Assembly: GCA_006218065.1 (NCBI GenBank)
Contig: VBWE01000002.1
Location: 10,154 to 74,153 of the forward strand
DNA: 64,000 nucleotides
Reading direction: 5' to 3'
Source of the DNA: Bacteroidota bacterium
GTDB taxonomy: Bacteria; Bacteroidota; Bacteroidia; Palsa-965
Shown here: in pieces, positions 46,051 through 64,000 of the stretch
Position numbering within the stretch: the stretch's first letter is position 1
How the letters are laid out: each line of letters starts with the position of its first letter
Program-made: the position numbers and the translations under genes
The notes under the pieces: model-generated
What the model was told of the DNA's origin: nothing
Database searches by the model: none
Seen by the model: only the letters and a program-made list of their open reading frames with translations

Positions 46051-46086
46051 GATTCGATCCCAAGCCCCGCTATAGCGGCGGCTTTT

Positions 46087-46893: not shown

Positions 46894-47024
46894 GGATGAC
46901 GTGAGGAAGCCGCTCGCTTCCCTTTTGTGTATTGCTACCCTGTGAGAAAAGGGATCACTAACACACGAGAGCATTCAAGGATCTTCTTTCGAAGATGATG
47001 AACGCTACCTGATAATGTCGACTG

Positions 47025-47228: not shown

Positions 47229-47263
47229 GAGTTATAACCCTTTTGTTTCTTTTTGTTTTTTAT

Positions 47264-47797: not shown

Positions 47798-47990
47798 TCA
47801 CGGGCAGGTTATCGTCGGAATGTTTTGCCTCTCTATCGAACACGAAGAAATCTGTCTCTGGTTGCTGAAACAGGCGGAGATATGTTTTTCCGGCATTCGT
47901 TGTTTTTACAATGCCAATTCGAAACCACTTCACTTTCTGTTCTCCACCTTTGTTGTACACAACCCGTGTGCACACATCGAAAAGTCTCAT
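47751..47990 (-). CDS. small hypothetical protein
   Basis: 79-aa ORF. Its coding status is uncertain. Confidence 0.3.
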   Translation of the reverse strand: MRLFDVCTRVVYNKGGEQKVKWFRIGIVKTTNAGKTYLRLFQQPETDFFVFDREAKHSDDNLPVIDLDKLGLDEYDTAS

Positions 47991-48197
47991 AGATATATAC
48001 TTGTTATATGGGTAATTCGACCGCCGGAGAGACGAATTACTTATGCGTCATGTTGCCGCTCAACTCTGCTTTTGCGACATTGGGATGCACGTTTTGATGG
48101 CTTTAATAACGCTCAAACGTAGTTAGTCCCTTCGGCTGGACTGATTATACCAGTTATCTCAAGATAAACACAAGCAGAGCTATTTTTGTGAAGTATC

Positions 48198-49067
48198 CTA
48201 ATTCAAATAAGCCCGTGCTGTGTTTTCGAATTCAAGATCATTGTATTGCTCGTAAACGAATGTTGATATCGGGTTACTGTGGCCTAATCCTTTTTGAATG
48301 AATGCAAGCGGTGCAAGTTGATCTCGCCGTTTATGTGCCCAACCATGCCTGAAACTATGCGGAGTGATTTTTTCTTTTATTCCAGCTTTATGAACATAGT
48401 ACTGAACTCTTCGTTGCACAGAACGAGGAGTGAGTCGGATTGTCCACCCACGTGTGCACCAACCTACAAAAAGAGATTTAGCTCCATTCGTTTTATGTAA
48501 TCCCAGACGAATTGCCATATATTTCATTAAATACTCCTGTGTTGTTTGCGACCACATAATGATACGAGGCTTCCCTGTTTTCTTCGTAGCGATAACTGTT
48601 GAGGTCTTATTTTCGTCAATATTAGTGACTTCTAAATCGCATAATTCTGAAACACGTATACCGGTATCCCATAGAAGGTGTACCATTACTAAATCCCGTA
48701 AGGACATAAATTCATTCGATGGAATTACGGACGCTATCTTTTCAAATTCGGAGGCTGTAATCGCACGATGAGATTTGACGTGTATTCTTGGAAGCTTAAT
48801 AAGGGAAGGAGAAATACATCTGTAGTGCTGCTGTTGCCAAAACGCGAAAAAATTCTTGAGAACAACAATGGCAAATTGTATTGTTGCAGAATTATATCGC
48901 ACTTCCAGCCAAGAACGATATTTTACTATATCGCTGATCGCGTAGTGCTCAAGTGGTTTATTATCACAGAGACTACTAAAGCGAATCAGCCAGATTTTGT
49001 AATTGATGCTTGCTCGCGGCGCGTAAGTCCCCTTCCATTCTAAATATTCTTTTATTTTTTCTTGCAT
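48198..49067 (-). CDS. small tyrosine recombinase (XerC/XerD-like, phage integrase family)
   Basis: ..HSFRHGWAHKRRDQLAPLAFIQKGLGHSNPISTFVY.. (HxxR..Y) is present and an N-terminal SAM-like domain precedes it. The start is at the internal Met MQEKIKEYLEW. Confidence 0.85.
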   Translation of the reverse strand: MQEKIKEYLEWKGTYAPRASINYKIWLIRFSSLCDNKPLEHYAISDIVKYRSWLEVRYNSATIQFAIVVLKNFFAFWQQQHYRCISPSLIKLPRIHVKSHRAITASEFEKIASVIPSNEFMSLRDLVMVHLLWDTGIRVSELCDLEVTNIDENKTSTVIATKKTGKPRIIMWSQTTQEYLMKYMAIRLGLHKTNGAKSLFVGWCTRGWTIRLTPRSVQRRVQYYVHKAGIKEKITPHSFRHGWAHKRRDQLAPLAFIQKGLGHSNPISTFVYEQYNDLEFENTARAYLN

Positions 49068-49080
49068 AAAAACGCAAAAC

Positions 49081-49199
49081 CCACCAAGATGAACTGGCGG
49101 GTCTGCGCTATCCTGTTTCCAGGATACGCTAAAGCATAGCAAGAGATAAAGAAAAAATAAAGTGAAGAAGGCTATTGGACCCCGCTGTTCATCTGGTTC
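49081..49199. repeat. ~22-bp imperfect inverted repeats flanking a 74-bp segment, between divergent recombinase and NYN genes
   Basis: 49083-49103 accaagatgaactggcgggtc matches rc of 49178-49199 aaccagatgaacagcggggtcc at ~18 of 21. An inner hairpin atcctg..caggat is present. Confidence 0.55.
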
Positions 49200-49343
49200 T
49201 TGTTAGAACCGCTCCTCTCGGAGCAACGGATTTCAATATTAATCTTTTAATAGGACGAGTTATTTGTCGCATTATAAGAACAACTTGTCAAGTAAATGAA
49301 TTTTATCTCGCTTCCTTGGCATCAGGCATGATAAGATGATTTC

Positions 49344-49841
49344 ATGAAAAAAGATCGAAAAAGCTTTGCCTATATAGACAGCGCAAATTTGTACAAAGGA
49401 TGTATCGCAGAAGGGTTTAGAGTGGATTACAAAAAACTAAGAATATATTTAGAGGAACGGCATGGTGTAAAAACCGCTTATATGTTCATCGGTTTTGTCG
49501 GAGGCAATGAAGAAATGTATAAAAACTTTCAAGAGTGGGGCTATACACTTATTTTCAAGCCAACTATACCGGGTGAAAATGGCGTTATTAAAGGCAACTG
49601 CGATGCTGAATTAGTGTTGCAATCAGTCTCTGATTTTTATGAGCAGAAATACGAGCAGTCTGTCATTGTTTCAAGCGACGGTGATTTTGCATGCCTGATT
49701 AAATTTCTCTTAAAGCGTGATGCGCTTGATTGTATATTAAGCCCGAGGGCAGAAGAAAAATGCTCAAGCCTGCTGAAGACGGTTGGGGCAAAACTGACAT
49801 TCCTGCCGCAAGTAAGAGACAAGATCAGCTTGCAGAAATGA
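49344..49841 (+). CDS. NYN-domain (LabA-like, PIN-fold) protein
   Basis: ..FAYIDSANLYKG.., ..NCDAELVL.. and ..VIVSSDGDFACL.. are acidic residues typical of the NYN ribonuclease domain. Confidence 0.7.
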   Translation: MKKDRKSFAYIDSANLYKGCIAEGFRVDYKKLRIYLEERHGVKTAYMFIGFVGGNEEMYKNFQEWGYTLIFKPTIPGENGVIKGNCDAELVLQSVSDFYEQKYEQSVIVSSDGDFACLIKFLLKRDALDCILSPRAEEKCSSLLKTVGAKLTFLPQVRDKISLQK

Positions 49842-51283: not shown

Positions 51284-52243
51284 TTAGAAATGTATTTTTA
51301 CTTCGCCGGTTCCGTCGGCGTTCATGATGTAAATATTGCTCTCCGAGAATATAGTATTATCGCCAATCAATTTCTGATCCCATCTGCTTGCAATAATCTT
51401 GCTGCCGTCTCCGGAAATATCGATAACCACATACAATTTGGTGTCGCAGAATGTCTTGATGATCTGCGTCTGTAAACCGGGCAGGTCTGTTATGAAAAAA
51501 GAACGTGATGTTTTCCAAAGCAGGCGCTGAGAATCCGGGAACCAGTCGCTGTAGCTGATGATGTCTTTCGCGTCGCCGATCTCGATGGCAGCGACTTCCG
51601 AAATCTGCCCGGTGTTCGGATTGATACTGATAATTGCATTTGATGAAGGGCCAGTGCTCACGGGAGAAGATATTTTTTGGCTGTCATTTGACCAGGAGCC
51701 GTTGCTCAATATAAATCCGGGAAGCGTATCGAGAGGATTGCCCTCATCATCTGCAATGATCGAATAGTTATTTGCCCCGTCTGTCCGCCGGAACACGTAT
51801 CTATCCCCCGCATAATTCCACACGGCATCGAAGCATGACGAGGTGAATGTTAGTTGAGTCAGACTGTCGCCGTTGCTTTTGATCTTCCACACATTGTTGT
51901 CGCCGTGATTGAAAAGAATCCAGCCGTTTCTTCCCCAGTCGGGTTTTTGAAATATGCTTGTTGTGAGAAGATAGTCGTTACCGGTCGAGCGGTTTTTTAT
52001 TCGCAGTTCCGTTTGACCGGTACTTTTCGTTTCTCGCACATAGACGAATTCATTACTGTTATTTGGATTGAAGCACGGAGCGAGATAGAGAGAGGCCGGA
52101 TATTGGTATGAATATCCAAACGGTCCCGTTGATGGCGGGAAGTCAAAACAATTCCCCTCAAGCGAGAAAGCAATATCCTTGCTGCATGAAAAAAACAACA
52201 TGCAGCAAGAGATAATCGCTATGGCTCGGTGTAAAGAAATCAT
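51284..52243 (-). CDS. lipoprotein with TolB-like (PD40/WD40-like) beta-propeller repeats
   Basis: The product has a lipobox (..CCMLFFSCSK). Repeated ..DG..I.F.S.R.G..NIY...DG.. patterns are present. Confidence 0.5.
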   Translation of the reverse strand: MISLHRAIAIISCCMLFFSCSKDIAFSLEGNCFDFPPSTGPFGYSYQYPASLYLAPCFNPNNSNEFVYVRETKSTGQTELRIKNRSTGNDYLLTTSIFQKPDWGRNGWILFNHGDNNVWKIKSNGDSLTQLTFTSSCFDAVWNYAGDRYVFRRTDGANNYSIIADDEGNPLDTLPGFILSNGSWSNDSQKISSPVSTGPSSNAIISINPNTGQISEVAAIEIGDAKDIISYSDWFPDSQRLLWKTSRSFFITDLPGLQTQIIKTFCDTKLYVVIDISGDGSKIIASRWDQKLIGDNTIFSESNIYIMNADGTGEVKIHF

Positions 52244-55200
52244 TTGTGTACCACTATCATTTTTTTCTGGATACTCCCTTTTTCAGTTGTAACCGTGGCA
52301 ATATATGCACCATCTGAGACATCTGTCGTTTCAATTGTCGTCGTGTGCATTCCCTCTGCTAATTTCCCCATATTCGTCGACTTAACCAACCGTCCTTGCA
52401 TATCGTAAAGATCGACGGTTACTGCGCTTGCTTCACTCAACGAGACTGGAATCGAAAAAGAATTGTTAGACGGGTTCGGAAACGGTTCACCGACATTGAC
52501 AGCATTGCTTGCCGATTCGGTCATGCCGGTAAGCGTGGGATCGAAGGTCAAAACACTGAACGCGCAGAGTGTCCCGAATTGTGTCGTTGGGAGGAAAGTA
52601 TTCACGGCCTGTCCTGTCGTTAAGTTAAACGTAAAATGATAAAAGTATGTTTCCATGACCGCCTGGTTATTGGTATAGGAAACGATTGTGCTCCACGCTT
52701 CAGTGCCGATAGGGTTTGACAGACTCCATCCGAATGATGAGTTATAGCGGGGCCACGCCGAGAGAATCGTTTCTCCGACCGGAATCGGAGCGTAGTTTAG
52801 TGTATGGGTAACTTTATGGATATCGGCAAGATACGCTCCTGCGGCAACGCTCTGGTAATTGTTTGGAAGAATGACGGCGACGTTTTGCGCAAATAAGCTC
52901 GGACTGACGCTTGATCCAGTCGTGTTTGTTGCAAAGTGATAGACCTTGTACGCGGGATAGTTCACGAAGGTAAGCGACTGGCCCGCGTTGATTCTGCCGT
53001 ACCCGGTGTATTGGTCATACCCCGGCGCAGACGGTGACACGGAAAGATCAACTGCAGCAGCCTGGAGGAGATACTCAATATCCTCGGGAGCAAGATGAAA
53101 CAGGAATGGAGTGGTCTGTGTGTTTACTTTGCTCACCATCAATGCGGCAGTTCCTGACACATGGGGTGCGGCGGCAGATGTCCCGTCGAATGGCTGATAA
53201 CCGTTTGTGATTGATTCAAGCGTGTACACAATATCAAGATCACCGGGTGCGCAAAAATCCATCCCTCCGCCATAGCTTGACGAATAGCTTGAGCTGCCGT
53301 TGCTTGGGGTCTTGTATTCTCCGTCATTGCCGGTTGAGCCGACGTTTAAGACGAACTCATCGTTGTAGCATGCAGGAACGGTAATATTCGAGTTCCCGTC
53401 ATTTCCCCGAGCTCCGACAACGACGACATTATTTCTCGCAGCGAAACGGACGGCATCTTTCAGAAGCGATATGCTGGCTGCAGGAAGCGGCCCGGCATCA
53501 CCCCTCCAACTGTTATTCATAATATGCAGACCATAACCGCCCTGGGTTGTACTGGTCGCTCCTCCGACGACTCCGTTTGCGATCAGCGAATAGGTCGCAA
53601 CGGCACTATTCGCGTCAAAGAGTTTCATGTCAAAAAGCGTCACGCCATCATATTGCGCCGTGCCGTTTCCCCCGGCAATGCCTGCTATGCCGGTACTGTT
53701 ATCCCGCAGGGCACCGATAATCCCTGCACATGCAGTTCCGTGTCCGAGCAGATCGTACGTCGGCGCAAGCGGAGCGTTGGTAATAAAGTTGAATCCCCCG
53801 GCGACTTTTCCTTGCAGGTCGGGATGTGTTTGGTCGATGCCGGAGTCATAAACGCCGACACGGATAGTTGCGTTCCCTTTCTCGATATCCCACGCCGGTT
53901 CAATATTGATTCCTGCACTCGGGAAGGGATTATTTGGATGCAGGCTGAATTGGTTGCTTATGTATTGCGGATCATTCGGCACATCGGCCAGTTCGGCAAC
54001 GTAGTTCGGATGTGCGTACCAAATTTCCGGCTGCACGGTATTGAGCGAATCGGCGACAGCGATTTCCATACCTGGCTGCACGAACAGCCGGAGTGCGGCC
54101 CAAAAAGACGAGATCGGAACAGTATCGCCGAGTCTTGATATTGAAACGGTGTCGTTTGTCGAGAGCTTTAAAAATATCTTCGCAACTTTCCAATCGGTTA
54201 CGTCCGTACCGAGCTTTGCGTTCATCACCGCAATCGCAGACGGTTTGACGAACTCGTGCAAGACACCAAATTGTTTATCGGGATCATTGACGGCAGGAGT
54301 ATCGATAACGCTCGGGTCGAAACGAACAACGACTTCACCGGTTGCAAATGCCATTCCCGGCAAGCTTGTTGTATCAACCACAAGGGCCGTTTCAAGGAAT
54401 GAGTATTTGATTGTCGCGTACTGATCGGCGTTGCCGGTCGATGATTTTCCAGTGACATACATCGTGCTGTTTCGTATCGACACGTCAAACGATTTGTCAC
54501 TCGCATTTGTGGGAGCATTGAAAAAATTCTCCCAGGCCTTCGTGCCGGAGCTGTCGTACTTGATTGTCAGGTAATCTTTGTTTCCGGCAGCGTTCGTCAT
54601 TTCCCCGGTTACATACACATTTCCGGAATTATCGACGGTCAGCTTATGTGCTTCTCCGAAGTCCGTCGGCGAGGGTGCCGCTTCTCGTTTTACCCATTGT
54701 TGTATTCCGGCAGCCGAATATTTTGCGGTCGTAAAATCCTTGCCGCCGTTTGTTTTCTTGGTGTACCCGGTGAAGATCACGTCGCCGTTTGCGTTAAGAG
54801 CGAGCGCATTGGCGCAGTCCTCAAGATTTTCGCCGTTGTATTGCTGCACCCACTGCAATGTGAGAGCCGTGTTCAGTTTCAGCACGAGTGCATTGCCTGC
54901 GGTTGTATTCTGTGCAGTACCGCCAGAGACGAACACATTGCCTGCATTATCGAGCGTGATCGCTGTCGCCTTGTCATAGCCGTTGCCTGAAATAGCATGA
55001 CGATACGCTCCGACTTGTGTTCCTGCCGTGTTGTATTTGATTACGGTAATGTCGGAATTGAAGAAACTGCTTGCGCTTGAGCCCGCAACATAGCTATTCC
55101 CGGCGTTATCAACTGCAAGCCCGAACGGAATATCCGGGAGGTTAGCGAAGTTGTATCGCTTCACCCATTGTTGCATACCGGCACCGTTGTATTTGATCGT

Positions 55201-55728
55201 CACGAAATCGGAGTTCAGTGCATTTCCCGTGCCAACGCTTGCGCCGGTTATGTACACGTTGCCGGTATTGTCGAGGGCTATTGCCGCTGCAATATCGTTT
55301 TTGTTGCCAGTACCGTTATACAATACGCTCCAGAGGAGACTGCCGGTTGCACTGTATTTGAGCGTTACAAAATCATAGCTGCTCGTCGCATTACTCCAAG
55401 TTGCACCAGTTACGAAAATATTACCGCTATTGTCCCGGATGATCGCGCTGCCGAAATCAGGACCGTTCGATGTTCCGTTGTATTGCTGTTGCCAGCAAAT
55501 CGTTCCGTTAGAATTGTATTTGACGGTCAGGAGATTCGTTCCTTGACTTATTGTCTTGGTATTTCCGACAATAACAGCGCAGCCGCTGTTATCTATAGCC
55601 GTCATGGTGAAATCAACCGTATCGGGAAACGCGTTGACGGCTTCCCATTCGCGATTACATAATGTTGTTTGTCCGTCTACACCGTATGCTCCAGCTATCA
55701 GGAGAGAAATAAGAATAGCCTTTTTCAT
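52240..55728 (-). CDS. S8-family subtilisin-like serine peptidase with N-terminal SBBP beta-propeller repeats and T9SS C-terminal sorting domain
   Basis: SBBP repeats recur (..DNSGNIFVTG..DFVTLKYS..G..W..). The subtilase catalytic triad motifs are GVYDSGID (Asp), HGTACAGIIG (His) and GTSAAAPHVSG (Ser). The T9SS tail is ..FPNPSNNSFSIPVS..GAYIATVTT... Confidence 0.85.
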   Translation of the reverse strand: MKKAILISLLIAGAYGVDGQTTLCNREWEAVNAFPDTVDFTMTAIDNSGCAVIVGNTKTISQGTNLLTVKYNSNGTICWQQQYNGTSNGPDFGSAIIRDNSGNIFVTGATWSNATSSYDFVTLKYSATGSLLWSVLYNGTGNKNDIAAAIALDNTGNVYITGASVGTGNALNSDFVTIKYNGAGMQQWVKRYNFANLPDIPFGLAVDNAGNSYVAGSSASSFFNSDITVIKYNTAGTQVGAYRHAISGNGYDKATAITLDNAGNVFVSGGTAQNTTAGNALVLKLNTALTLQWVQQYNGENLEDCANALALNANGDVIFTGYTKKTNGGKDFTTAKYSAAGIQQWVKREAAPSPTDFGEAHKLTVDNSGNVYVTGEMTNAAGNKDYLTIKYDSSGTKAWENFFNAPTNASDKSFDVSIRNSTMYVTGKSSTGNADQYATIKYSFLETALVVDTTSLPGMAFATGEVVVRFDPSVIDTPAVNDPDKQFGVLHEFVKPSAIAVMNAKLGTDVTDWKVAKIFLKLSTNDTVSISRLGDTVPISSFWAALRLFVQPGMEIAVADSLNTVQPEIWYAHPNYVAELADVPNDPQYISNQFSLHPNNPFPSAGINIEPAWDIEKGNATIRVGVYDSGIDQTHPDLQGKVAGGFNFITNAPLAPTYDLLGHGTACAGIIGALRDNSTGIAGIAGGNGTAQYDGVTLFDMKLFDANSAVATYSLIANGVVGGATSTTQGGYGLHIMNNSWRGDAGPLPAASISLLKDAVRFAARNNVVVVGARGNDGNSNITVPACYNDEFVLNVGSTGNDGEYKTPSNGSSSYSSSYGGGMDFCAPGDLDIVYTLESITNGYQPFDGTSAAAPHVSGTAALMVSKVNTQTTPFLFHLAPEDIEYLLQAAAVDLSVSPSAPGYDQYTGYGRINAGQSLTFVNYPAYKVYHFATNTTGSSVSPSLFAQNVAVILPNNYQSVAAGAYLADIHKVTHTLNYAPIPVGETILSAWPRYNSSFGWSLSNPIGTEAWSTIVSYTNNQAVMETYFYHFTFNLTTGQAVNTFLPTTQFGTLCAFSVLTFDPTLTGMTESASNAVNVGEPFPNPSNNSFSIPVSLSEASAVTVDLYDMQGRLVKSTNMGKLAEGMHTTTIETTDVSDGAYIATVTTEKGSIQKKMIVVHK

Positions 55729-56025
55729 TGTTATTCATTTTTAAGGGTCAATACTCCGTTTGTATTGCTCGGGGAGAAGCAATTGCATTTTAAAAATGGA
55801 TTCGAATATGAAGCAAGGATATGCCTTACTTCATATTCAATCGGGACGGATCGCCAAATCCTATGTGATACGGGGGATGGGTTCAGTTACGCTTGCTCTT
55901 CAGATATTCTTAGCGTAAGACGAATATATAAATTATTCGTTGCTTGGTACAAATTAAAATTTGTCATTTTTATACATGTCCAACTGATCGTTAACGAATG
56001 AGGAGAAGAGAAAAAATAACCGGTT

Positions 56026-56475
56026 TCATTGGACATCTTTAATTTTCATGGCCATGATCTTCCAGATATCCTCTTTGCATTGCAGATAGCATTCACCAGA
56101 AAATTGTATTACCGATCCTTTTTGATAAAACGTACAAATTGTCGGCGACTTGACCTTTTCTTTCGGTTCTTCCATTACGATCTGAATGTCTTGTATATAA
56201 CCGTCGGGGAGAGAAGTACTGGCCAGCCATATGTTTTTATTAGGAGATCCTTTTGCAGTCCATTTGAGCACATAGAATGAGCCAAACCCTTCATTGTGTT
56301 CTTCATGTATGCTTGTTTTCTCAAAATGTGTTATTAAAAATTCACCCGTTGATTTAAAATTGATCCATTGGGTAAAAAAATCTTGAACAACAGTAAGCTG
56401 TTTATCTGTCTCTGTGTTCCCACAAGAGATGAAGCCACAGATAAAAAGGAAACCGAAAATTAGGTTCGTTTTCAT
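56026..56475 (-). CDS. hypothetical lipoprotein
   Basis: The product starts MKTNLIFGFLFICGFISCGN. Confidence 0.5.
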   Translation of the reverse strand: MKTNLIFGFLFICGFISCGNTETDKQLTVVQDFFTQWINFKSTGEFLITHFEKTSIHEEHNEGFGSFYVLKWTAKGSPNKNIWLASTSLPDGYIQDIQIVMEEPKEKVKSPTICTFYQKGSVIQFSGECYLQCKEDIWKIMAMKIKDVQ

Positions 56476-56508
56476 GAGAAACAGGTTTTAGGGTAAAACG
56501 TAGATGTA

Positions 56509-57687
56509 TTATCGGATTTTCTTCAAGAGTTCTTCCGTCCCGGAGACATCGGAAACGCCTTCAATTTTTGCCAGCCGAATTGCTTCGCGCGCAGATTTCT
56601 CCGCATCTTCTTTCCGGCCGAGCGTGTAGAGAAGAGCGGCATACGTGTCGGTATTGGCATAGGCGGCGTGCATGTCGATGGATTTTTTCGCCCACCCAAG
56701 TGCTTTGGCGAGATAGACGGTATCGCTCACCTGTTTATAGAACGCCCATGCCATATTATTTAACCCCCAGATATCATTCGCAGGCATGTGCTGTTCGACA
56801 AACCGCGTGGCCGTTTTTGCATAGGCGTTCCAGTTTTTTGTACGCTCGTAATACGAGATATCCATGCCAGTCAAAAAACGGTCGGCATTCGGCAGCTTGA
56901 GCGCAAGAACATCACTCCGGAGTTTCAGATAGCCGAGCGTATCGACCGGTTTTTTTTCAAAGAGCGTATTTCTCATTGCACCCCGGTACACGCGTTCAAT
57001 CACCAACGCGACGGAATCAGCCGTGTAACGGTTTTCAAAGGCAGACCGGTGGGAGCAGAGATATTGGAAAGAATGTGTATTCGGGTCTGACACAAAATCA
57101 CGGAGTACGGTCCAGCTTTCCCGGTTGAGGTATTCGGTCTCGGAAAGTGTGGCTAAAAACGCGTTCGTTTCCTCTTCTACCGGCAGGCAGCAGGCGCGTT
57201 TCATGTTCATATAGTGGATAAGCTCCTTCGCCTGCATCTTCCCTGTTTCATACTGTGTTTGGTATGCGGCAAAGCATGTTTGCGGAGTACTGGTTTTCTC
57301 GCCAATAGCAACAAATGGCGCGACCAGATATGCTCCGCTGACCCTATGGATAAGCACTCCTTTCTCGTCGAGAAATAGATATGTCGGGAAGCAGCGCACA
57401 TCGTACCGCTTGGCGATCTCGATTCCCTCTCCTTTTTCCATGTCGAATTTGCTGGAGATAAAATGAGTGTTGTAAAACTGCGCTGCCGTATCGTTGGCAA
57501 AGACATTTTTGTCCATCCACTTGCACGGCCCGCACCAGGTTGTGTAGCAGTCGAGAAAAACAAGTTTGTGTTTCGTTTGCGCTTTCTCAAGCACGCAAGC
57601 GAGTGAGCCGCTTTCAAAGCGGATTTGCGCGGAAAGGGATGCTACAAGGAGCAGCAGGGCGAGGATAAAGAGAGATCGGTTTTTCAT
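56509..57687 (-). CDS. secreted thioredoxin-fold protein
   Basis: The product has a signal peptide. ..FLDCYTTWCGPCKWMDKNVF.. carries a CxxC thioredoxin motif. The C-terminal half is helical and TPR-like. Confidence 0.7.
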   Translation of the reverse strand: MKNRSLFILALLLLVASLSAQIRFESGSLACVLEKAQTKHKLVFLDCYTTWCGPCKWMDKNVFANDTAAQFYNTHFISSKFDMEKGEGIEIAKRYDVRCFPTYLFLDEKGVLIHRVSGAYLVAPFVAIGEKTSTPQTCFAAYQTQYETGKMQAKELIHYMNMKRACCLPVEEETNAFLATLSETEYLNRESWTVLRDFVSDPNTHSFQYLCSHRSAFENRYTADSVALVIERVYRGAMRNTLFEKKPVDTLGYLKLRSDVLALKLPNADRFLTGMDISYYERTKNWNAYAKTATRFVEQHMPANDIWGLNNMAWAFYKQVSDTVYLAKALGWAKKSIDMHAAYANTDTYAALLYTLGRKEDAEKSAREAIRLAKIEGVSDVSGTEELLKKIR

Positions 57688-57783
57688 GGCTTTCTATGAT
57701 TTTGTGCGATAAATCTAACAATTATTCTATAAAGTGAGATATATCTCACACATTTATTCTGTACTGGATAGATTTTTGTTTGT

Positions 57784-58014
57784 GTGAAGGGCAAGAGTTC
57801 AAAACAGTTTCGAAAAGCGCTTGGGCAAAGGATTCGGGTACTCCGGAAAAGCCAGAAGATTTCCCAGGCTCAGCTTGCGTATGAAGTCGGTGTTACCCGC
57901 GAGACAATCGTGTATATCGAGCGCGGAGTACAGAATGCGACGACGGATGCGATCTACAATATTGCGGTTGCTCTCGGCATATCCATGAAGGAATTGCATG
58001 ATTTTGAGTGGTAG
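57784..58014 (+). CDS. XRE-family HTH transcriptional regulator
   Basis: ..LGQRIRVLRKSQKISQAQLAYEVGVTRETIVYIERG.. Confidence 0.75.
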   Translation: MKGKSSKQFRKALGQRIRVLRKSQKISQAQLAYEVGVTRETIVYIERGVQNATTDAIYNIAVALGISMKELHDFEW

Positions 58015-58108
58015 CCTCCTTTCTCTTTTAGTGATACAAGAATAACGAAAAAACGAACATGTAGCGTATGCGCTACAATAAATTTTATGCGATCAGGAAC
58101 TTCAATTC

Positions 58109-58351
58109 GTGAATGCGTCAGACAAGAAGTACCTGTGTGCGCTTGGAAAGGCTATCCGCGAACTGCGGGAAGCTCAAGGAATTTCTCAAGATCAGCTTGC
58201 ATATGAAAGCGGTCTCCACCGGACGACTATAAATCGGATTGAAAACGGTCACTTCGATGCTGGTGCGTTAGCGCTTCGCGCAATCGCCAAAGCACTCAAT
58301 GTTCCGACGACCGGTGAGATTTTCTTGTTTGAGAAGAAGGAGGGGAAATAA
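58109..58351 (+). CDS. XRE-family HTH transcriptional regulator (paralog of 57784..58014)
   Basis: ..LGKAIRELREAQGISQDQLAYESGLHRTTINRIENG.. Confidence 0.75.
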   Translation: MNASDKKYLCALGKAIRELREAQGISQDQLAYESGLHRTTINRIENGHFDAGALALRAIAKALNVPTTGEIFLFEKKEGK

Positions 58352-58354
58352 AAA

Positions 58355-58384
58355 AGCCCCCGGAAGTAAAATACTTCGGGGGCT
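58355..58384 (+). terminator. stem-loop terminator after XRE genes
   Basis: agcccccggaagt-aaaat-acttcgggggct has a perfect 12-13 bp stem. A weak T-tract follows. Confidence 0.55.
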
Positions 58385-58811
58385 GACAATTAACGCATCA
58401 GTCTAACCAAAACCAAGAGGTCGCTGAGAGAAATACTATACACTATTGCGTATATAGATGTCAACAAATGTTAAACGATTTTAAATTGGAGAAATAATCG
58501 CATTCAAACCTAAACCCGCTCTCACCGGCGGGATTTTTATTTTATAACGATTCCCGAGGAGCGCAAGCGCATCGTTCACCTTTTTCCCGCCAAGTTTCTT
58601 TTCCTGATCGTCCAAGAACCTTTTTGGTCGGCAAAGATATTTCCTGCCTGGTCGGGAGCAAGGCAGGATGAATGAGGCTCGAAGAAAACTCCGTTCCCCC
58701 TCTGGAGGGAACCCACGAACTTTTCTTCGACCTCGCCTTGCACCCTCATGTCAGCGCACGTAAAAGTGGGCCTTCAAAAAAAGGTTCCCCTGGCGACAGG
58801 GTGAAGAAAAA

Positions 58812-59282
58812 ATGAAGGCCATGAAAAAGAAACAATTTGTCAGCGATGTTCAACTCACCTACCAACGGACCGACATTCCGACGGTCAAAATTCTCTCATC
58901 CTTTGATGCCGTACAGCCATGTATCGACCTTATTCCAAAAGGACAAATCGCGTTACGTGAATTCTTCGGCACGCTTCTCCTGAATCGGACAAACCACGTA
59001 TTGAATCGCTGCCTGCTTTCCTCGGGAGGCTCCTGCTCAACAGTCGTTGATATCAAACACCTGATGCAATACGTCATTCTTTCCAATGCAGTTGGGATCG
59101 TTTTATTTCACAATCACCCGTCAGGAAATGTCCGGCCCTCTGCCCAGGACTGCAGCACGACAAGGCAGATCAAAGAAGCCTGCCGGATTTTCGATATCAA
59201 TCTGCTCGATCACATTATCCTTTCAGGATACCCGCTTGAAGATCCGGGCTTCTTCAGCTTCTCGGATAACGGGATGCTGTAA
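58812..59282 (+). CDS. radC: RadC-like JAB-domain protein
   Basis: ..VVDIKHLMQYVILSNAVGIVLFHNHPSGNVRPSAQD.. is the JAMM/RadC signature (HNHPSG). Confidence 0.85.
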   Translation: MKAMKKKQFVSDVQLTYQRTDIPTVKILSSFDAVQPCIDLIPKGQIALREFFGTLLLNRTNHVLNRCLLSSGGSCSTVVDIKHLMQYVILSNAVGIVLFHNHPSGNVRPSAQDCSTTRQIKEACRIFDINLLDHIILSGYPLEDPGFFSFSDNGML

Positions 59283-59381
59283 GGTGGTTCATTTTATATA
59301 CCGCGGCTCGATCTTTGAATCGAGTCGCGGTTCGTTTGTATCAGCAATTAAACTATTTTGGTAATACCTATAAGAAAACTC

Positions 59382-60050
59382 ATGAGAACGATTTTATTAT
59401 TCCTCCTGGCAACAACACTTCTTTGTACAGGTACCGGCGCGATTAATAAAGAAAAACCCTGTTCGGAAACGTTTAGTGGAAAAAGGCGTGAAATAGTAAA
59501 AACAAACATTGCAAGCGGAGTACAGACAACAATTACTATTTCCGAACTATATAACAGGCCGATGCCGAGTGAAAAAACAATGAAAGAAAAGTATAAAGTG
59601 ACCGATAAATCTGGACGGAGTGAACCGGAAAAGGAAAACGTAACAATTATCTGCTGGTTATATACCTATGTTCATGAAGGAGATGGTGACTATCATCTTA
59701 TTATTGGAAGCTCGTCGGACAAGGATAAAGCGCGATTTTTTAGTGCAGAAATATCTGGCTTACCGAAAAAGACGTCCATAAATTATAAATATTACAACCA
59801 GCTAAAAAAAGCAAGGGACCAGTTTAAATCGCTTATCGCAGATTATTCACCATGTCCTTCGACATACGTCCAAAGTCTTTTCGATAAACCCATGAAAATT
59901 GAAGTTACTGGAAATCTTTATTGGGATACCGAGCATGCTGGTGGTAGTTGCTGCTCGGGAACAACAAGAAAGAAGGATGGGTTTGTATTTAAATCAGAAT
60001 CACCTTGGGAAATTCATCCTGTAACAGAGATTCATCCCATTGAAGATTAG
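59382..60050 (+). CDS. secreted hypothetical protein
   Basis: The product starts with the signal peptide MRTILLFLLATTLLCTGTGA. No recognisable domain is present. Confidence 0.5.
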   Translation: MRTILLFLLATTLLCTGTGAINKEKPCSETFSGKRREIVKTNIASGVQTTITISELYNRPMPSEKTMKEKYKVTDKSGRSEPEKENVTIICWLYTYVHEGDGDYHLIIGSSSDKDKARFFSAEISGLPKKTSINYKYYNQLKKARDQFKSLIADYSPCPSTYVQSLFDKPMKIEVTGNLYWDTEHAGGSCCSGTTRKKDGFVFKSESPWEIHPVTEIHPIED

Positions 60051-60093
60051 AAAAACAATTCTAAAATGATTAAGAGTAGAGCAGGTAGAAACG

Positions 60094-60621
60094 TTAAAAC
60101 CAATTGAATGATTTTGTGTTTGAAAGCCTGAATGTCATAGCCTGACTGCTAACGTTAAAGAGGTTTGCCAACTCTTGGATTGAACCCTCTTCGGTTAAAT
60201 CGTAGTTGTGATTCTTAATTTCCCGAAACAATATTTTTTCAGGCATCAGCAAAGCAGCAGCAAATGCATTGGCTTCTTGTTCTTTTCGAATTTCTTTCGT
60301 GGTAGACTTTTGGCTCCTAAATTCAACTCTAAATCCTTTATCAATAAAAAGACCGCCGATATTTCCATGTAGAACGAAATGGCCAAATTCATGAGCAATA
60401 GTAAATCGCTGTCGTAATGTCGATTCGTTTGGATTATATCCAATAATGCCAACACCATTACTTATTACCAAAACTCCCGAAACATCTTCTCCTAAATCGT
60501 AGGGTTTGACCTCAAGTCCATAGCTAGTTGCAATTTTGTCAACAGGTATAGGGAGTTCATTAATTTGCAAATCATCCAGGATTTTTGCGGTTTTTCTTTC
60601 AATGGCTGATCTGTCATTCAT
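60094..60621 (-). CDS. ImmA/IrrE-family metallo-endopeptidase
   Basis: The HEXXH motif is ..FTIAHEFGHFVLH... It follows an XRE gene with a 2-bp gap. Confidence 0.8.
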   Translation of the reverse strand: MNDRSAIERKTAKILDDLQINELPIPVDKIATSYGLEVKPYDLGEDVSGVLVISNGVGIIGYNPNESTLRQRFTIAHEFGHFVLHGNIGGLFIDKGFRVEFRSQKSTTKEIRKEQEANAFAAALLMPEKILFREIKNHNYDLTEEGSIQELANLFNVSSQAMTFRLSNTKSFNWF

Positions 60622-60973
60622 GGCGCACAGAGATTTGTGTATGAACGTGTTCGATGAAATCAATTAGTTGCTCTTTGGAGCGTTTTCCGATATTAGATTC
60701 TTTGACGATTCGTTTTTGTATTTCAGAATTTGCAACTTCTGAAGTAGTAAAGCCTGGGAGCAGCTTTGCCACATCTATTTTAAGCACTTTTGCCATATCC
60801 CACAGTGTATGAGTCGGAGTATGTTGTCTCCCCTTTTCGATATTCACTATGGACGCTCTGCTAAGCTTGAGTAATTTAGCAAGAGTTTCTTGCTTTAAGC
60901 CAGCGGTAACCCTGGCAGTCTTGATGTGTGCACCAAGGGCTTCATAAAACCGTTTTTGTTCGGAAACAGTCAT
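60614..60973 (-). CDS. XRE-family HTH regulator (ImmR-like partner of ImmA)
   Basis: ..LGAHIKTARVTAGLKQETLAKLLKLSRASIVNIEKG.. Confidence 0.75.
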   Translation of the reverse strand: MTVSEQKRFYEALGAHIKTARVTAGLKQETLAKLLKLSRASIVNIEKGRQHTPTHTLWDMAKVLKIDVAKLLPGFTTSEVANSEIQKRIVKESNIGKRSKEQLIDFIEHVHTQISVRHE

Positions 60974-61387
60974 TACTAAGGATTGGTTGGGCAAATATAG
61001 GTAAAAGTTGAATATCGCAAACTGTTTGTATTATTTTACTTTTGTAAAATTGATTATTTGCAGTATTTGACATTTTAAAAAAAAATTATATTTTTGTTTC
61101 AACACCACTATTGTTAAAGATAACGTATGAATGTGAAAATCCCCAGATGGTGGTTCATCCAGGGATTTTAGGAATGCAAACAGTTGGACTTTGAGCAAGG
61201 CAGAGCCTTGTGCATTCCCCTTTTGTTACGCGAGTAACGGCACAAATATAACGGCGATTATTTGCTTAGCAAATAAATCTGCTGTCGTATCTGGCCCGGC
61301 ACAACAAAAGTATCCATCAAAGCTGCCGGGATCAGTCTCTTCCCGTGATTTTGAGGCATATTAATTAAACTTCAAATCTGTAAAAAG

Positions 61388-61612
61388 ATGGCGAAGAAAA
61401 ATGTGCATGTAGTTCCCCGCGGTAAAAATTGGGCCGTTGTCGGAGCCGGAAACGAAAAAGCAACTGCGGTGACAAACACCCAGGCTGAAGCAATCAAAAT
61501 TGCAAAGCCTATTGCGAAAAACCAGCAATCTGAACTTGTCGTTCATGGCACCGATGGCAAAATCAGAGAAAAGAACTCATACGGGCCAGATTCCTTTCCA
61601 CCGAAAGGATAA
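61388..61612 (+). CDS. DUF2188-family small protein
   Basis: MAKKNVHVVPRGKNWAVVGAGNEKATAVTNTQAEAIKIAKPIAKNQQSELVVHGTDGKIREKNSYGPD.. matches the DUF2188 pattern recalled from memory. Confidence 0.65.
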   Translation: MAKKNVHVVPRGKNWAVVGAGNEKATAVTNTQAEAIKIAKPIAKNQQSELVVHGTDGKIREKNSYGPDSFPPKG

Positions 61613-61698
61613 ATGTGAAAGGTTAAATTATAGAAGTGGGCGTTAGCCTGCTTCTATTTTTCTTTTTAATTAAATCGGCAAACACAAAAAGCAAACAC

Positions 61699-62100
61699 AT
61701 GAAAAACCTATACTTAATTCTTGATATTACCGAGGGAGCGACTGTGGACGAAATAAAGAAAGCTTACCGCGCACTCGCAAAGCAACACCACCCGGATAAG
61801 AATAATGGCAGTAAAGAATCGGAAGAACGTTTCAAGAAGATTCGAGAAGCCTATGAAATCTTGAGTGACGAGGACAAAAAGAGAGCATATGACTTCGAAC
61901 TTGCGCAGGCTCGTCGGGCCGAAGCGCAGGCGAAACGATATTCAAGCAATAGAACCGGATCAGCCAATACACATGGGATGCCATATCCCTCAATACCAAA
62001 ATTCAATTGGGGTGCAGCAGTAGCATTCTTTTTAATCTTTATTGCAATTGCAGCAGCATTCGCATCGGATGATAAACCCTCAAACTCAAAAATCGGATAG
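61699..62100 (+). CDS. J-domain (DnaJ-like) protein with C-terminal transmembrane anchor
   Basis: The J domain carries an HPD motif (..DEIKKAYRALAKQHHPDKNNGSKESEERFKKIREAYEILSD..). The C-terminal TM helix is ..WGAAVAFFLIFIAIAAAFA... Confidence 0.75.
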   Translation: MKNLYLILDITEGATVDEIKKAYRALAKQHHPDKNNGSKESEERFKKIREAYEILSDEDKKRAYDFELAQARRAEAQAKRYSSNRTGSANTHGMPYPSIPKFNWGAAVAFFLIFIAIAAAFASDDKPSNSKIG

Positions 62101-62102
62101 TT

Positions 62103-62942
62103 ATGGTATTTGTTAAACAAATCGGGAAGGGCGGACTTGGAATCGTCCAACTCTACAAGCATGAAAGAAGTGGAAATCTTTATGCTGTGAAGCGCATGCA
62201 GTGCGCCTGGGATAACAACCACTTTGAACGGTTTGTTCGTGAGATTAAACTCATGGCGAATCTCGTGCACAAGAACATCATGAAAATTTTGAAGCATGAT
62301 ATCGAAAACACAAGCCCATACTACATTATGCCGTTCTATAAAGAAGGAAGCTTGCGAGACCGGTTGAATGACATGAGCGGCAAAGGGAAAGTGTTTTCTC
62401 AGGAAGCTGCTGCATCAATCATTTTTGTTTTAGCTGAAGCGCTTGCCTATTCACATAAAAAAGGTGCTATTCATAGGGATTTGAAACCCGAGAACATCAT
62501 GTTTGAAGGAAGAGAGCCCATAATTGCAGATTGGGGCCTTGGAAAGTTTATTCACCGGGAATCAAAAGTACTTACAGGTGCCGGGTTAGGAACTCCTTTA
62601 TACTGTGCTCCCGAGCAATGGAATTACGGCAAGGCAGACGCAAGGTCTGATATTTATTCATTAGGGAGAATATTTAACGAGCTCCTTACGGGCAATATTT
62701 TTGGGCATGTAGCGAATGATCGGTTGCGGGCAATCATTAAAAAAATGACTCGAGAGAATCCGAATGAACGATACCAGAATATGGACGAGGTTATTGTTGC
62801 GATCAAGAACCTGCATGTAGTGAATGAAGAAGCCCCAATGGATGCATTTTGGGAAGGCTTGTTGATTGCCGGTGCTGCTATTGTGGCGGCAGCAGCAATA
62901 GCAGGGCTTCTCGCCTGGGCTTTTGGTGATAACTCCAATTAA
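62103..62942 (+). CDS. Hanks-type Ser/Thr protein kinase with C-terminal transmembrane anchor
   Basis: The glycine-rich loop is IGKGGLGIV. Also present are the catalytic Lys in AVKRM, the HRDLKPENIM catalytic loop, DWG in place of DFG, and APE in GTPLYCAPE. The C-terminal TM helix is ..LLIAGAAIVAAAAIAGLLAWAF... The start is 3 bp after the J-domain stop. Confidence 0.8.
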   Translation: MVFVKQIGKGGLGIVQLYKHERSGNLYAVKRMQCAWDNNHFERFVREIKLMANLVHKNIMKILKHDIENTSPYYIMPFYKEGSLRDRLNDMSGKGKVFSQEAAASIIFVLAEALAYSHKKGAIHRDLKPENIMFEGREPIIADWGLGKFIHRESKVLTGAGLGTPLYCAPEQWNYGKADARSDIYSLGRIFNELLTGNIFGHVANDRLRAIIKKMTRENPNERYQNMDEVIVAIKNLHVVNEEAPMDAFWEGLLIAGAAIVAAAAIAGLLAWAFGDNSN

Positions 62943-62983
62943 TAGGTAAGTGTAAAAAAGTAATACAATCCTAAAGCATTTTT

Positions 62984-64000
62984 ATGTCCATATCCAATAT
63001 TCCCGACCCTGTTAAATTTATTCTTTGGGCAAAGGCAGCAGGTCGTTGCCAATATGAAGGATGTCCGAAAATCCTGTACTTGGAAGATTTCACAAAAGCG
63101 GAATTCAATCAGGCTTATACCGCACACATAATTGCCGATGTGCCGACTGGTCCTCGCGGCGATGCAGTGCTATCTAAAAAGTTAAAGAAGGATATATCTA
63201 ATCTTATGTTGCTCTGCGATGCACACCATCGGTTGATAGACAAAGTAGATATAGCAGGACATCCCGTTGAACGTTTGTGTGAGATGAAACAGCGACATGA
63301 AAAAAGAATGGAGCTGCTTACTGCAATTCAAGAGAGTAAGCGGAGCCATGTTCTAATGTACGGGGCAAACATCGGGAAGCATGAAACTCCCCTTACTAAA
63401 AGTGAAGCCCATTTGGCAATGATACCTGAACGATATCCTGCAGAGGCAAATCCTCTTGAGTTAGGAATGAAAGCAAGCTCGCTCGAGGATCGAAATGAGA
63501 TTTTTTGGAAAGTGGAAGAAGAGCATTTGCAAACACGCTTTCAACAACGTGTCTCGCCTTTAAAGGGTACTCATGAAGTACAGCATTTCTCTGTATTTGC
63601 GATGGCTCCTCAACCGTTATTAATCAGGCTCGGCACGTTACTTTCGGATTTGTATCCCGCAGACGTATATCAACGACATCGGGAGCCAGCTACTTGGAAA
63701 TGGCAGGATAAGGCCGATGTCGAGGATTTCGAATTGATTGAGCCGACTGATAAGAGTGGTATACCGGCCCTTGTCTTTGCCCTGAGTGCAACCATAAACG
63801 ATGATCGCATCACGACTGCACTTGAGAACAAAGCTTCTATCTGGAAAGTCATGGTATCGAAGCCCGGGAATAACTTTCTAAGAAAGAAAGACCTGCTTGA
63901 AAAATTCCGAATGCGGACAAGACATCTTCTGAATGAAATAAAAGCTCACCACGGAGAGTATGCGAACATTCATGTTTTTCCCGCTATGCCGGTTTCTACA
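62984..64000 (+). CDS. HNH endonuclease-domain protein with C-terminal uncharacterised (possibly SAVED/CARF-like) region; partial, continues beyond window
   Basis: The frame is open for 339 codons from ATG 62984 to the window edge. It is not in the ORF track because there is no stop. The N-terminal HNH motifs are ..GRCQYEGCPK.., ..AHIIADVPTGPRGD.. and ..NLMLLCDAHHRLIDK... The C-terminal ~200 aa (..HFSVFAMAPQPLLIRLGTLL..IHVFPAMPVST) has no confident assignment. Confidence 0.7.
   Translation, partial: MSISNIPDPVKFILWAKAAGRCQYEGCPKILYLEDFTKAEFNQAYTAHIIADVPTGPRGDAVLSKKLKKDISNLMLLCDAHHRLIDKVDIAGHPVERLCEMKQRHEKRMELLTAIQESKRSHVLMYGANIGKHETPLTKSEAHLAMIPERYPAEANPLELGMKASSLEDRNEIFWKVEEEHLQTRFQQRVSPLKGTHEVQHFSVFAMAPQPLLIRLGTLLSDLYPADVYQRHREPATWKWQDKADVEDFELIEPTDKSGIPALVFALSATINDDRITTALENKASIWKVMVSKPGNNFLRKKDLLEKFRMRTRHLLNEIKAHHGEYANIHVFPAMPVST

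Follow-up and report, generated by a model that had tools for sequence, protein, structure and literature searches.

Analysis of the terminal part of the window, i.e., the whole stretch of 64,000 nucleotides of DNA under study, showed that this region is the front, promoter-proximal half of a CBASS operon, and not a self-contained four-gene system. The reading that we favor, and regard as reasonably probable, is that of a CapH/CapP-controlled CBASS on a mobile element that carries a nested, co-regulated and most likely autonomous module composed of a J-domain protein and a Ser/Thr kinase. The element is an integrative mobilisable or conjugative one, residing in a Bacteroidota genome. A preliminary description had taken the locus to be the distal end of the island, which did not hold, as a relaxase and a coupling protein are encoded approximately 7-9 kb further on. 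The four co-directional genes that it had delineated (DUF2188, J-domain protein, kinase and HNH nuclease) agree in coordinates and spacing with the present analysis, with gaps of 86 bp between the DUF2188 and J genes, 2 nt between the J stop and the kinase ATG, and 41 bp between the kinase gene and that of the nuclease, identified here as Cap5 (Table 1). Moreover, profile searches confirmed the DUF2188, DnaJ and Pkinase assignments, and found in the HNH protein a SAVED domain as well.

Table 1. Features of the locus; positions beyond 64000 are window-equivalent and were read on the matching contig.
Feature	Position	Strand	Basis
capP-like M78/ImmA-type zinc metallopeptidase (175 aa, HEFGH motif)	60094..60621	-	PADLOC capP 1.5e-36; Pfam Peptidase_M78 4.9e-24
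capH-like XRE-family HTH repressor (119 aa)	60614..60973	-	PADLOC capH 3.8e-9; HTH_VI 2.7e-10; Pfam HTH_3 1.3e-10
Putative divergent control region	60992..61096	both	Promoter motifs and palindrome (consensus matches only)
DUF2188 small protein (74 aa), operon leader gene	61388..61612	+	Pfam PF09954 1.9e-23; PADLOC PDC-S16 9e-35
Terminator-like hairpin (12-bp stem, 4-nt loop) followed by TTTTCTTTTT	61630..61667	+	Terminator scan, RNA fold
Tail-anchored J-domain protein (133 aa)	61699..62100	+	Pfam DnaJ PF00226 3e-26 over residues 3-65
Tail-anchored Hanks-type Ser/Thr kinase (279 aa)	62103..62942	+	Pfam Pkinase 6e-42
Cap5 (HNH-SAVED CBASS effector nuclease)	62984..64000 in the window; true end 64114	+	Pfam SAVED, PADLOC, PDB
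CdnG-like CD-NTase (DncV-like NTase, 413 aa)	64126-65367		Same contig, downstream of Cap5
Stand-alone CBASS E2 (149 aa)	65342-65791		Same contig; 26-bp overlap with the cyclase end

A contig retrieved by exact look-up, identical to the window over positions 52103-64000, was used to read past base 64000, and yielded the end of the nuclease gene followed by genes for a CD-NTase and an E2. In total, 339 of the 376 codons of Cap5 lie inside the window. Its translation shows the HNH motifs (CxxxxC...C..HH, with H48/N73), and what had been described as a large uncharacterised C-terminal domain is SAVED (PF18145; 5.6e-35 for the window part and 7.6e-50 for the full length). In addition, Cap5 matches the PADLOC models for the CBASS endonuclease effector (4.7e-156) and SAVED_HNH (1.2e-139), and its sequence matches the Cap5 structure in the PDB (7rwk, 1.8e-91). 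The CD-NTase gene starts 11 bp after the end of Cap5, and its product matches the PADLOC cyclase (4e-132), the Pfam families DncV-like_NTFase and SMODS, and the solved proteins cGAS-like 9woo (6.7e-56) and SmCdnG 8hsb_A (3.4e-36). The E2 matches its PADLOC counterpart (3.2e-46) and the E2 of the SmCdnG complex (8hsb_B, 7.7e-17); no Cap3/JAB gene follows it on the contig, this being an E2 without E1 or JAB. Judged by these sequence matches, Cap5, the CdnG-like CD-NTase and the stand-alone E2 are a CdnG-Cap5-E2 (type II-short) CBASS. The SAVED receptor would already have a cyclic-nucleotide signal from the adjacent CD-NTase, and the nuclease should not need the kinase. Characterised CdnG-Cap5 pairs signal through 3',2'-cGAMP.

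Upstream of the defence genes, on the opposite strand, lies a divergent HTH/M78 pair (60094-60973), in which the start of the capP-like gene overlaps the stop of the capH-like gene by 8 bp. The presence of this pair had been recognised earlier under the name ImmR/ImmA, but by sequence its members match CapH/CapP, the divergent, DNA-damage-responsive regulators of immune operons. CapH/CapP as divergent regulators of immune operons, and operons containing DUF2188 in association with them, have been reported in a published survey (bioRxiv 10.1101/2022.04.27.489752). Since a sigma-70 promoter scan is uninformative for Bacteroidota, it was replaced by a search for the Bacteroidetes-type motif TTTG-N17-23-TAnnTTTG. 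In 20.8 kb of locus L001 (both strands), this motif was found only three times, always in the spacer between capH and DUF2188 (plus strand, 61066-61096; minus strand, 61021-60992 and 61273-61243), and it was absent before the J gene and before Cap5. An imperfect palindrome in the same spacer (61003-61043) is a candidate CapH operator. An Rfam search of this spacer and of the gap between DUF2188 and the J gene gave one sub-threshold chance match only.

DUF2188 is a recurrent small first gene of CapH/CapP-controlled operons. Homologues with 47-51% identity immediately precede Cap5 or the CD-NTase in four of 80 related CBASS loci; in one of these loci (L117), an M78 and HTH pair diverges from a DUF2188-Cap5-CdN arrangement, with approximately 4 nt separating DUF2188 from Cap5. 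Moreover, a published drawing shows a DUF2188 gene adjoining a Pseudomonas aeruginosa CBASS. Between DUF2188 and the J gene, the terminator-like hairpin folds with -22.8 kcal/mol (z = -3.6; none of 200 shuffles folds as well), and is followed by a T-run, which argues against DUF2188 being just one more member of a tightly fused operon with the genes that follow. We assume that transcription of the J, kinase and CBASS genes proceeds from the CapH-controlled promoter, past the hairpin. As the gap between the kinase and Cap5 has no promoter or terminator motif, the J, kinase and CBASS genes are probably expressed together.

In the J-domain protein, a charged helical linker joins the HPD-bearing J domain to a C-terminal transmembrane helix (residues 105-123); the start codon at 61699 is supported by an alignment of homologues. 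The HPD tripeptide, invariant in three aligned family members, is intact, as expected of a J-domain (Hsp40) co-chaperone, which is what we predict the protein to be. Homologue searches were dominated by generic J domains, and the combination of J domain and transmembrane helix was common to only five protein clusters above 139 bits. One further locus of this architecture (L182) could be read, its sequence ending inside a second J-domain gene. As an observation on their surroundings, such J genes in the window, in L180 and in L182 share their position, in that a RadC gene of related elements precedes each of them by 1.5-3 kb.

Regarding the kinase, the transmembrane helix spans approximately residues 253-271. 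The claim of a single C-terminal helix on both proteins was borne out by hydropathy, with Kyte-Doolittle 19-mer scores of 2.42 for the J protein and 2.54 for the kinase; within the kinase family, 26 of 30 members score above 1.6, and three of the other four (1.46-1.57) have their helix at the same C-terminal position. Likewise, the DWG (D143-W144-G145) that replaces DFG among otherwise intact catalytic motifs is as had been described, and is invariant in 30 family sequences, together with K30, E47, HRDLKPEN and PEQW; a PM-x-DFWEG motif is also conserved. CK2 alpha, an active kinase, carries DWG as well. The AlphaFold2 model (pLDDT 86) shows a canonical bilobal fold and a C-terminal helix (residues 245-274); among solved structures, PknB is the closest in fold. 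Sequence and model thus agree in presenting the protein as a Hanks-type Ser/Thr kinase, with the glycine loop, the VAIK lysine and alpha-C glutamate, the HRD loop and the APE motif all in place, DWG aside. The family comprises approximately 62 clusters, in Bacteroidota, with a sharp drop in score at its boundary. A genome scan keyed on the generic HRDLKPEN pattern returned 80 unrelated kinases (at most 39% identity), a scan of viral contigs with a family-specific sub-alignment (DWG[IL]GKF, YC[AS]PEQW) gave no match, and tblastn of the kinase against plasmids gave generic matches only, below 35% identity.

Ten kinase neighbourhoods were read. The kinase is mostly on its own, has a J partner in three of them and a CBASS in two; neither accompanies it in L083, L085, L088, L091, L095, L098 and L181. 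Its neighbours include PD-T4-1 (1.4e-73), PDC-S06 (2e-155), PDC-M62A/B, a type I R-M system and Abi_2, and divergent HTH/M78 regulators stand upstream in three loci (the window, L085 and L181). The orthologue in L091 sits among housekeeping-type genes. In all three J-kinase pairs, the J stop and the kinase ATG are separated by 1-3 nt. One of these pairs, in L180, lies upstream of a gene for an LmuB-like (Lamassu-like) SMC ATPase, with no CBASS, Cap5 or DUF2188. The metagenomic locus L094 is the only other one with a J-kinase-Cap5 arrangement, and keeps the order J-kinase-Cap5-CD-NTase (40%, 69%, 73% and 64% identity to the window, respectively). There, the J gene is the first of the unit, with no DUF2188 or CapH/CapP within 1.3 kb upstream. 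The GC content of the J and kinase genes (0.435-0.438) gives no distinction from that of the CBASS genes (0.41-0.43). Overall, we infer that J and kinase are a cassette of two genes, membrane-tethered in its products and translationally coupled, which was inserted between DUF2188 and Cap5. It would be co-transcribed with the CBASS, yet most likely works independently of it, as a second module serving defence or stress.

It is possible, though unlikely, that the two proteins are instead accessory regulators of the CBASS, in which a membrane-tethered kinase, held or matured by DnaK via its J partner, would phosphorylate the cyclase, the E2, Cap5 or CapH, thereby priming or restraining signalling; such a role would be analogous to that of Cap2/Cap3 or HORMA/TRIP13 in other CBASS types. 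The order and tight spacing kept in the window and L094, the lack of a promoter or terminator motif from kinase to Cap5, the arrangement in L094, by which J, kinase and CBASS would travel as one block, and the fact that neither locus has a damaged open reading frame or catalytic motif are in agreement with this proposal. However, a single ancestral insertion explains both loci, and neither the J nor the kinase gene was present in any of the 80 related Cap5 loci (48-57% identity), a sample that is effectively smaller than its count, as approximately 30 of them are the same human-gut element. Moreover, the J-kinase pair of L180 occurs without CBASS, the kinase occurs with neither partner in seven other contexts, and the CBASS already has a regulator of its own in the E2. 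None of the papers found by full-text literature searches connects CBASS with Hanks kinases or with J domains.

A quite improbable alternative is that the J-kinase pair is non-immune cargo, serving membrane signalling of the element or the host (transfer, envelope stress or growth), and merely lies beside the CBASS. This would fit the recurrent position behind RadC and the housekeeping-type surroundings in L091; in addition, Hanks kinases are generic regulators, the nearest solved fold is PknB, and the PADLOC matches of the kinase are limited to its catalytic core. Against it, most kinase neighbourhoods hold many genes of known or candidate defence function, the HTH/M78 regulators seen in three of them are typical of toxic immune operons, and the distribution is patchy, as for mobile defence genes, with a context that differs in nearly every locus.

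Finally, that DUF2188, J, kinase and HNH form one new four-gene system, with the kinase controlling the nuclease, is hardly credible, for even though the genes are co-directional, close together and part of a mobile element, with an ImmR/ImmA-type pair upstream of them, the nuclease has a SAVED sensor and, behind its gene, those of a CD-NTase and an E2, a terminator-like hairpin splits DUF2188 from the rest, and all four occur together in no other locus examined. Co-conservation, which had been named as a check, failed in L094 (which lacks DUF2188), in L180 and in the 80 Cap5 loci, and a kinase family mostly without J and without any HNH/SAVED gene also counts against such a set. What stands of the preliminary description is the defence cargo with a nuclease effector on a mobile element, together with the view that a J-domain protein paired with a kinase is not known from any described system. 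Its architecture does not stand, the nuclease being a Cap5 with a predicted CD-NTase signal of its own, and the four-gene unit was not upheld.

For the CapH/CapP-controlled CBASS with its autonomous J-kinase module, the following course of events may be proposed, its CBASS part following what is established for these protein families. DNA damage or infection would generate single-stranded DNA that activates CapP, which would cut the repressor CapH and so increase transcription from the shared control region. Upon infection, the cyclase would make a cyclic dinucleotide, with the E2 tuning its activity; binding of this signal by SAVED would lead Cap5 to oligomerise and its HNH domains to degrade DNA, resulting in abortive infection. 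In parallel, the J domain may couple DnaK/Hsp70 to the tail-anchored kinase, so that a chaperone or membrane disturbance during infection would set the kinase free to act and, through phosphorylation, bring processes of the host or the phage to a halt. This latter chaperone-guard mechanism is purely conjectural; we know of no experiment or structure that ties a J-domain protein to a bacterial Hanks kinase. A precedent for the involvement of the DnaJ network is the host DnaJ-dependent sensing of phage by bNACHT25 (PMC12169576).

The public record of this metagenome-assembled Bacteroidota genome lists four of the six proteins as hypothetical, one as a curved DNA-binding protein and one as a putative kinase, and their re-annotation as a complete CapH/CapP-controlled CdnG-Cap5-E2 CBASS is in itself an ordinary result. 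A bolder, rather unlikely proposal is that the J protein acts with the DWG kinase as an infection sensor of a new kind, reading out Hsp70/DnaK or membrane status, which in this lineage serves as a phospho-regulator of the CBASS (on the cyclase, E2 or Cap5). In a weaker form of the proposal, Bacteroidota would have in this pair, or in the kinase by itself, a new anti-phage system that works independently. If the phospho-regulator form were true, CBASS would gain a class of accessory genes not recognised before. Few defence systems have been tested in the phylum Bacteroidota, and membrane-anchored Hanks kinases with an invariant DWG, located in its defence islands and repeatedly near DNA-damage-type regulators, are a candidate new defence gene family. 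Furthermore, chaperone guarding by bacterial immune proteins so far rests on one host-DnaJ example, and if the J-kinase pairing ties Hsp70 status to kinase signalling, it would offer a simple genetic handle on this process. Nested in a CBASS operon, the pair is also a natural construct for asking whether kinase and cyclic-nucleotide signalling cooperate.

With respect to known systems, bNACHT25 resembles the J-kinase pair in that a J-domain co-chaperone is involved in the perception of infection by an immune protein (PMC12169576), but there an NLR-like protein relies on the housekeeping DnaJ, while the minimal J protein of the present locus is a dedicated, membrane-anchored one whose gene adjoins that of a kinase, making the likeness a lead only. 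CapK/CapS, whose kinase acts on a STAS-domain substrate and regulates the immune operons that it accompanies, was considered and rejected as a match, since CapK is an anti-sigma-factor-type kinase of a superfamily different from the Hanks fold (PMC13373217). PD-T4-6 and Stk2 of Staphylococcus epidermidis are Ser/Thr-kinase defence systems of a single gene. The present family is of the Hanks type, mostly encoded alone and located in defence islands, a context that supports a similar role, and the PADLOC models of both systems match it (PD-T4-6 up to 7e-45, Stk2 1.2e-31), though over the catalytic core only (residues 5-198), as any Hanks kinase would; the present family differs by its invariant DWG, PM-x-DFWEG and C-terminal anchor, and by a subclade with a coupled J partner. 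The regulatory pair shares with CapH/CapP an XRE-type HTH and an M78 metallopeptidase with HExxH, encoded upstream of a defence operon on the opposite strand, and departs from them in its modest capH match (3.8e-9) and in the terminator-like hairpin after the first gene. Lastly, the closest characterised examples of the CBASS core are the CdnG-Cap5 of Asticcacaulis and Lactococcus, whose mechanism has been described (PMC8568899), and the CdnG-E2 complex of Serratia marcescens (PDB 8hsb). The locus agrees with them in its adjacent HNH-SAVED effector, CdnG-like CD-NTase and small E2, all strongly matching solved proteins, and is set apart by the tail-anchored J-domain and Hanks kinase genes that lie between its leader gene and Cap5.

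An exact-sequence look-up with the kinase identified a 196-kb metagenomic contig identical to the window across 52103-64000, which supplied the sequence past 64000 that the preliminary description had wanted, including the end of the HNH gene and its downstream partners. There, the full HNH gene encodes 376 aa, and its C-terminal part, earlier taken as an uncharacterised domain, is a SAVED domain (7.6e-50). A gene for a 413-aa DncV-like nucleotidyltransferase starts 11 bp after it, followed by a 149-aa E2-CBASS gene that overlaps the nucleotidyltransferase gene by 26 bp. The HNH protein matches the PADLOC model of the CBASS endonuclease effector (4.7e-156) and Cap5 in the PDB (7rwk, 1.8e-91); the nucleotidyltransferase matches the PADLOC cyclase (4e-132), the cGAS-like 9woo (6.7e-56) and CdnG from S. 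marcescens (8hsb_A, 3.4e-36); and the third protein matches the PADLOC E2 (3.2e-46) and 8hsb_B (7.7e-17). The three genes make up a CdnG-Cap5-E2 CBASS, the type in which 3',2'-cGAMP made by CdnG switches on Cap5, which degrades DNA (PMC8568899). The reading of the locus as a novel four-gene system is not supported; the CBASS genes continue past the window edge. Directly past the operon, and convergent with the E2 gene, a 271-aa caspase-like protein is encoded on the minus strand (13855-14670 of L001, the 20.8-kb locus taken from the matching contig; window-equivalent 65957-66772); it matches Peptidase_C14 (1.2e-05) and has no match in PADLOC.

As observations, the earlier ones were largely accurate, although the gene set was truncated by the window edge. 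The DUF2188, J-domain, kinase and HNH genes are all present, with spacings of 86 bp, 2 nt and 41 bp. Both the J-domain protein and the kinase carry a C-terminal hydrophobic 19-mer (Kyte-Doolittle means of 2.42 and 2.54, respectively), while the maximum in all other proteins of the locus is at most 1.35. The catalytic motifs of the kinase are complete, and DWG, in place of DFG, is invariant in 30 aligned family members. In an AlphaFold2 model (pLDDT 86), the protein adopts the canonical bilobal kinase fold and continues into a long helix at its C-terminus; PknB is the nearest solved fold. In a Bacteroidota metagenome-assembled genome, NCBI labels Cap5, the cyclase, E2 and DUF2188 as hypothetical, and the J-domain protein as "curved DNA-binding protein".

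Features of the island and the defence locus in window coordinates
Feature	Position	Strand	Details
tRNA-Asn	42740-42814		abutted by tyrosine integrase
Tyrosine integrase	42927-44384		abuts tRNA-Asn
Adenine methyltransferase	46087-46974		orphan, D12-class (Dam-type)
Promoter motif	61021-60992	-	consensus match; faces capH
Imperfect palindrome	61003-61043		between two promoter motifs
Promoter motif	61066-61096	+	consensus match; faces defence genes
Promoter motif	61273-61243	-	consensus match; third copy
DUF2188 gene	61388-61612	+	74 aa; PF09954, 1.9e-23
Hairpin after DUF2188	61630-61667	+	12-bp stem and T-run; -22.8 kcal/mol, z = -3.6
J-domain protein gene	61699-62100	+	133 aa; PF00226, 3e-26
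Kinase gene	62103-62942	+	279 aa; Pkinase, 6e-42
HNH gene (Cap5)	from 62984, past window end	+	SAVED, PADLOC and PDB matches

The island begins (42740-49841) with the tRNA-Asn, the tyrosine integrase, a sigma-70-like protein, the D12-class methyltransferase, a second XerC-like integrase and an NYN-domain protein, and it also carries RadC. The locus had been placed at the distal end of this island; since the island runs on past the window for at least 9 kb and reaches genes for a relaxase and a type IV coupling protein, the locus is instead mid-island cargo. Upstream of the defence genes there is indeed a divergent pair, previously named ImmR/ImmA, but its PADLOC matches (capP, 1.5e-36; capH, 3.8e-9), its HTH_3 and M78 domains, the latter with an HEFGH motif, and its orientation match those of CapH/CapP, the repressor and metallopeptidase regulators defined by position and orientation relative to an immune operon (bioRxiv 10.1101/2022.04.27.489752). 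Three copies of the Bacteroidetes-type promoter pattern TTTG-N17-23-TAnnTTTG are present in the 20.8-kb locus, all of them within the long (414 bp) capH-DUF2188 spacer at 60974-61387, and none lies ahead of the J gene or Cap5. From this arrangement we infer one CapH-controlled start that would serve the entire plus-strand gene set, attenuated after DUF2188; no hairpin of the kind following DUF2188 is found where DUF2188 directly abuts Cap5. Should transcription start from the plus-strand motif, about 285 nt of leader would precede DUF2188 in its mRNA; this leader includes a 14-nt-arm hairpin (61136-61169) and has no match in Rfam.

Scanning metagenomes with a Cap5 alignment gave 80 related loci (Cap5 identity 48-57%), approximately 30 of them a single human-gut element. 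Of the 80, 73 have an adjacent CD-NTase and 40 an adjacent E2, at least nine carry a capP-like gene upstream, and in four a DUF2188 homologue (47-51% identity) directly precedes Cap5 or the cyclase. In one locus (L117), DUF2188-Cap5-cyclase runs divergently from genes for an M78 peptidase and an HTH protein, and only about 4 nt separate DUF2188 from Cap5. Given these loci, the DUF2188 operons listed in the CapH/CapP paper (bioRxiv 10.1101/2022.04.27.489752), the DUF2188 neighbour in a published figure of P. aeruginosa CBASS, and the PADLOC candidate PDC-S16, which is DUF2188, this gene is a recurrent leader of CapH/CapP-type operons. DUF3892 and DUF2188 are two small families reported jointly in CapH/CapP-associated operons, and just upstream of the CBASS-less J-kinase pair of L180 a 93-aa gene (2563-2844) has a sub-threshold DUF3892 match (5.8e-4; 20.7 bits, cut-off 22.3). 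Small leader genes of this sort may be a general property.

By homologue search, the kinase family is sharply bounded, with approximately 62 clusters (45-100% identity, 270-280 aa) whose scores run from 633 to 269 bits and then fall to 164; members with an organism named by the source are Bacteroidota. Among ten distinct kinase loci, most have a clearly defence-rich context: the J-domain gene is present in three, CBASS in two and divergent HTH/M78 regulators in three.

Gene neighbourhoods of ten distinct kinase loci
Locus	Kinase identity	Neighbourhood
Window	100%	J-kinase-Cap5-cyclase-E2
L094	69%	J-kinase-Cap5-cyclase
L181:2911-5910	62%	M78 and HTH divergent from 138-aa HNH, 158-aa protein, kinase
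L180	61%	RadC, weak DUF3892, J-kinase, three small/unknown genes, LmuB-like SMC ATPase; without CBASS
L095:3902-8659	61%	WYL(-WCX) regulator, 369-aa unknown, tail-anchored kinase, second Hanks kinase, PP2C phosphatase; co-directional
L098	60%	flanked by PD-T4-1 (1.4e-73) and PDC-S06 (2e-155)
L088	56%	Fic and nucleotidyltransferase genes nearby
L083:2436-4438	53%	abuts tyrosine integrase; about 3.5 kb from BubE/ThiF-DUF6791/Multi_ubiq operon (ubiquitin-like conjugation)
L085	51%	HTH-M78 fusion divergent upstream; PDC-M62A/B, type I R-M, Abi_2 alongside
L091	45%	mostly housekeeping

L181 offers another example, the second, of the kinase under CapH/CapP-like control, here with different partners; its HNH protein has a glycine-zipper-like tail, and a relaxase adjoins the gene set. 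The L095 genes suggest a candidate kinase/kinase/phosphatase system with a CapW-like regulator, and its second kinase (270 aa) matches the PD-T4-6 model across its full length (2.2e-50).

All three J-domain proteins keep the HPD intact, have a charged linker and carry a C-terminal TM helix as well as a short SD..P..KI tail, and their profile retrieved just two more clusters above 139 bits, thereafter generic J domains only. Behind one further member (L182:10001-10734), a J-domain gene unlike the first starts 14 bp on and is truncated where the contig stops; it is unusual to find such tandem genes downstream of RadC. Each of the three J-kinase pairs has 1-3 nt between the J stop and the kinase start, which suggests that the two genes are translationally coupled and that their products probably form a complex.

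The simplest history would start from an ancestral unit, CapP-CapH divergent from DUF2188-Cap5-CdnG-E2, with a single entry of the J-kinase cassette between DUF2188 and Cap5, from which L094 would also descend. In L094, the 1.3 kb upstream of the J-kinase-Cap5 unit holds no DUF2188, CapH/CapP or convincing genes; at 941-991 it contains a long, near-perfect inverted repeat (GATTGCAAGTTGCCGGT ... ACCGGCAACTTGCAATC). The J-kinase-Cap5-cyclase order is kept between the window and L094 across 27-60% protein divergence, and the J-kinase and CBASS genes must be co-expressed, both of which speak for functional coupling. We nevertheless consider such coupling unlikely, and judge the modules to be functionally separable yet co-regulated, because none of the 80 related Cap5 loci (about 30 being the one human-gut element) carries J-kinase, while the pair, and the kinase alone, occur without CBASS among the ten neighbourhoods.

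For the J-kinase module, the J domain may recruit DnaK to the tail-anchored kinase, whose activity would be freed by chaperone or membrane disturbance caused by infection. Support for this proposal consists of three points: the two genes are coupled, HPD and the catalytic motifs are intact, and there is a precedent in bNACHT25, for which phage sensing is mediated by host DnaJ (PMC12169576). Full-text literature searches found no description of a tail-anchored J plus DWG kinase pair; this embedded pair is, on that basis, the new part of the locus and deserves modest follow-up. The CBASS, CapH/CapP and DUF2188 parts are of kinds already known, and the nesting of J-kinase within CBASS is an arrangement typical of defence islands.
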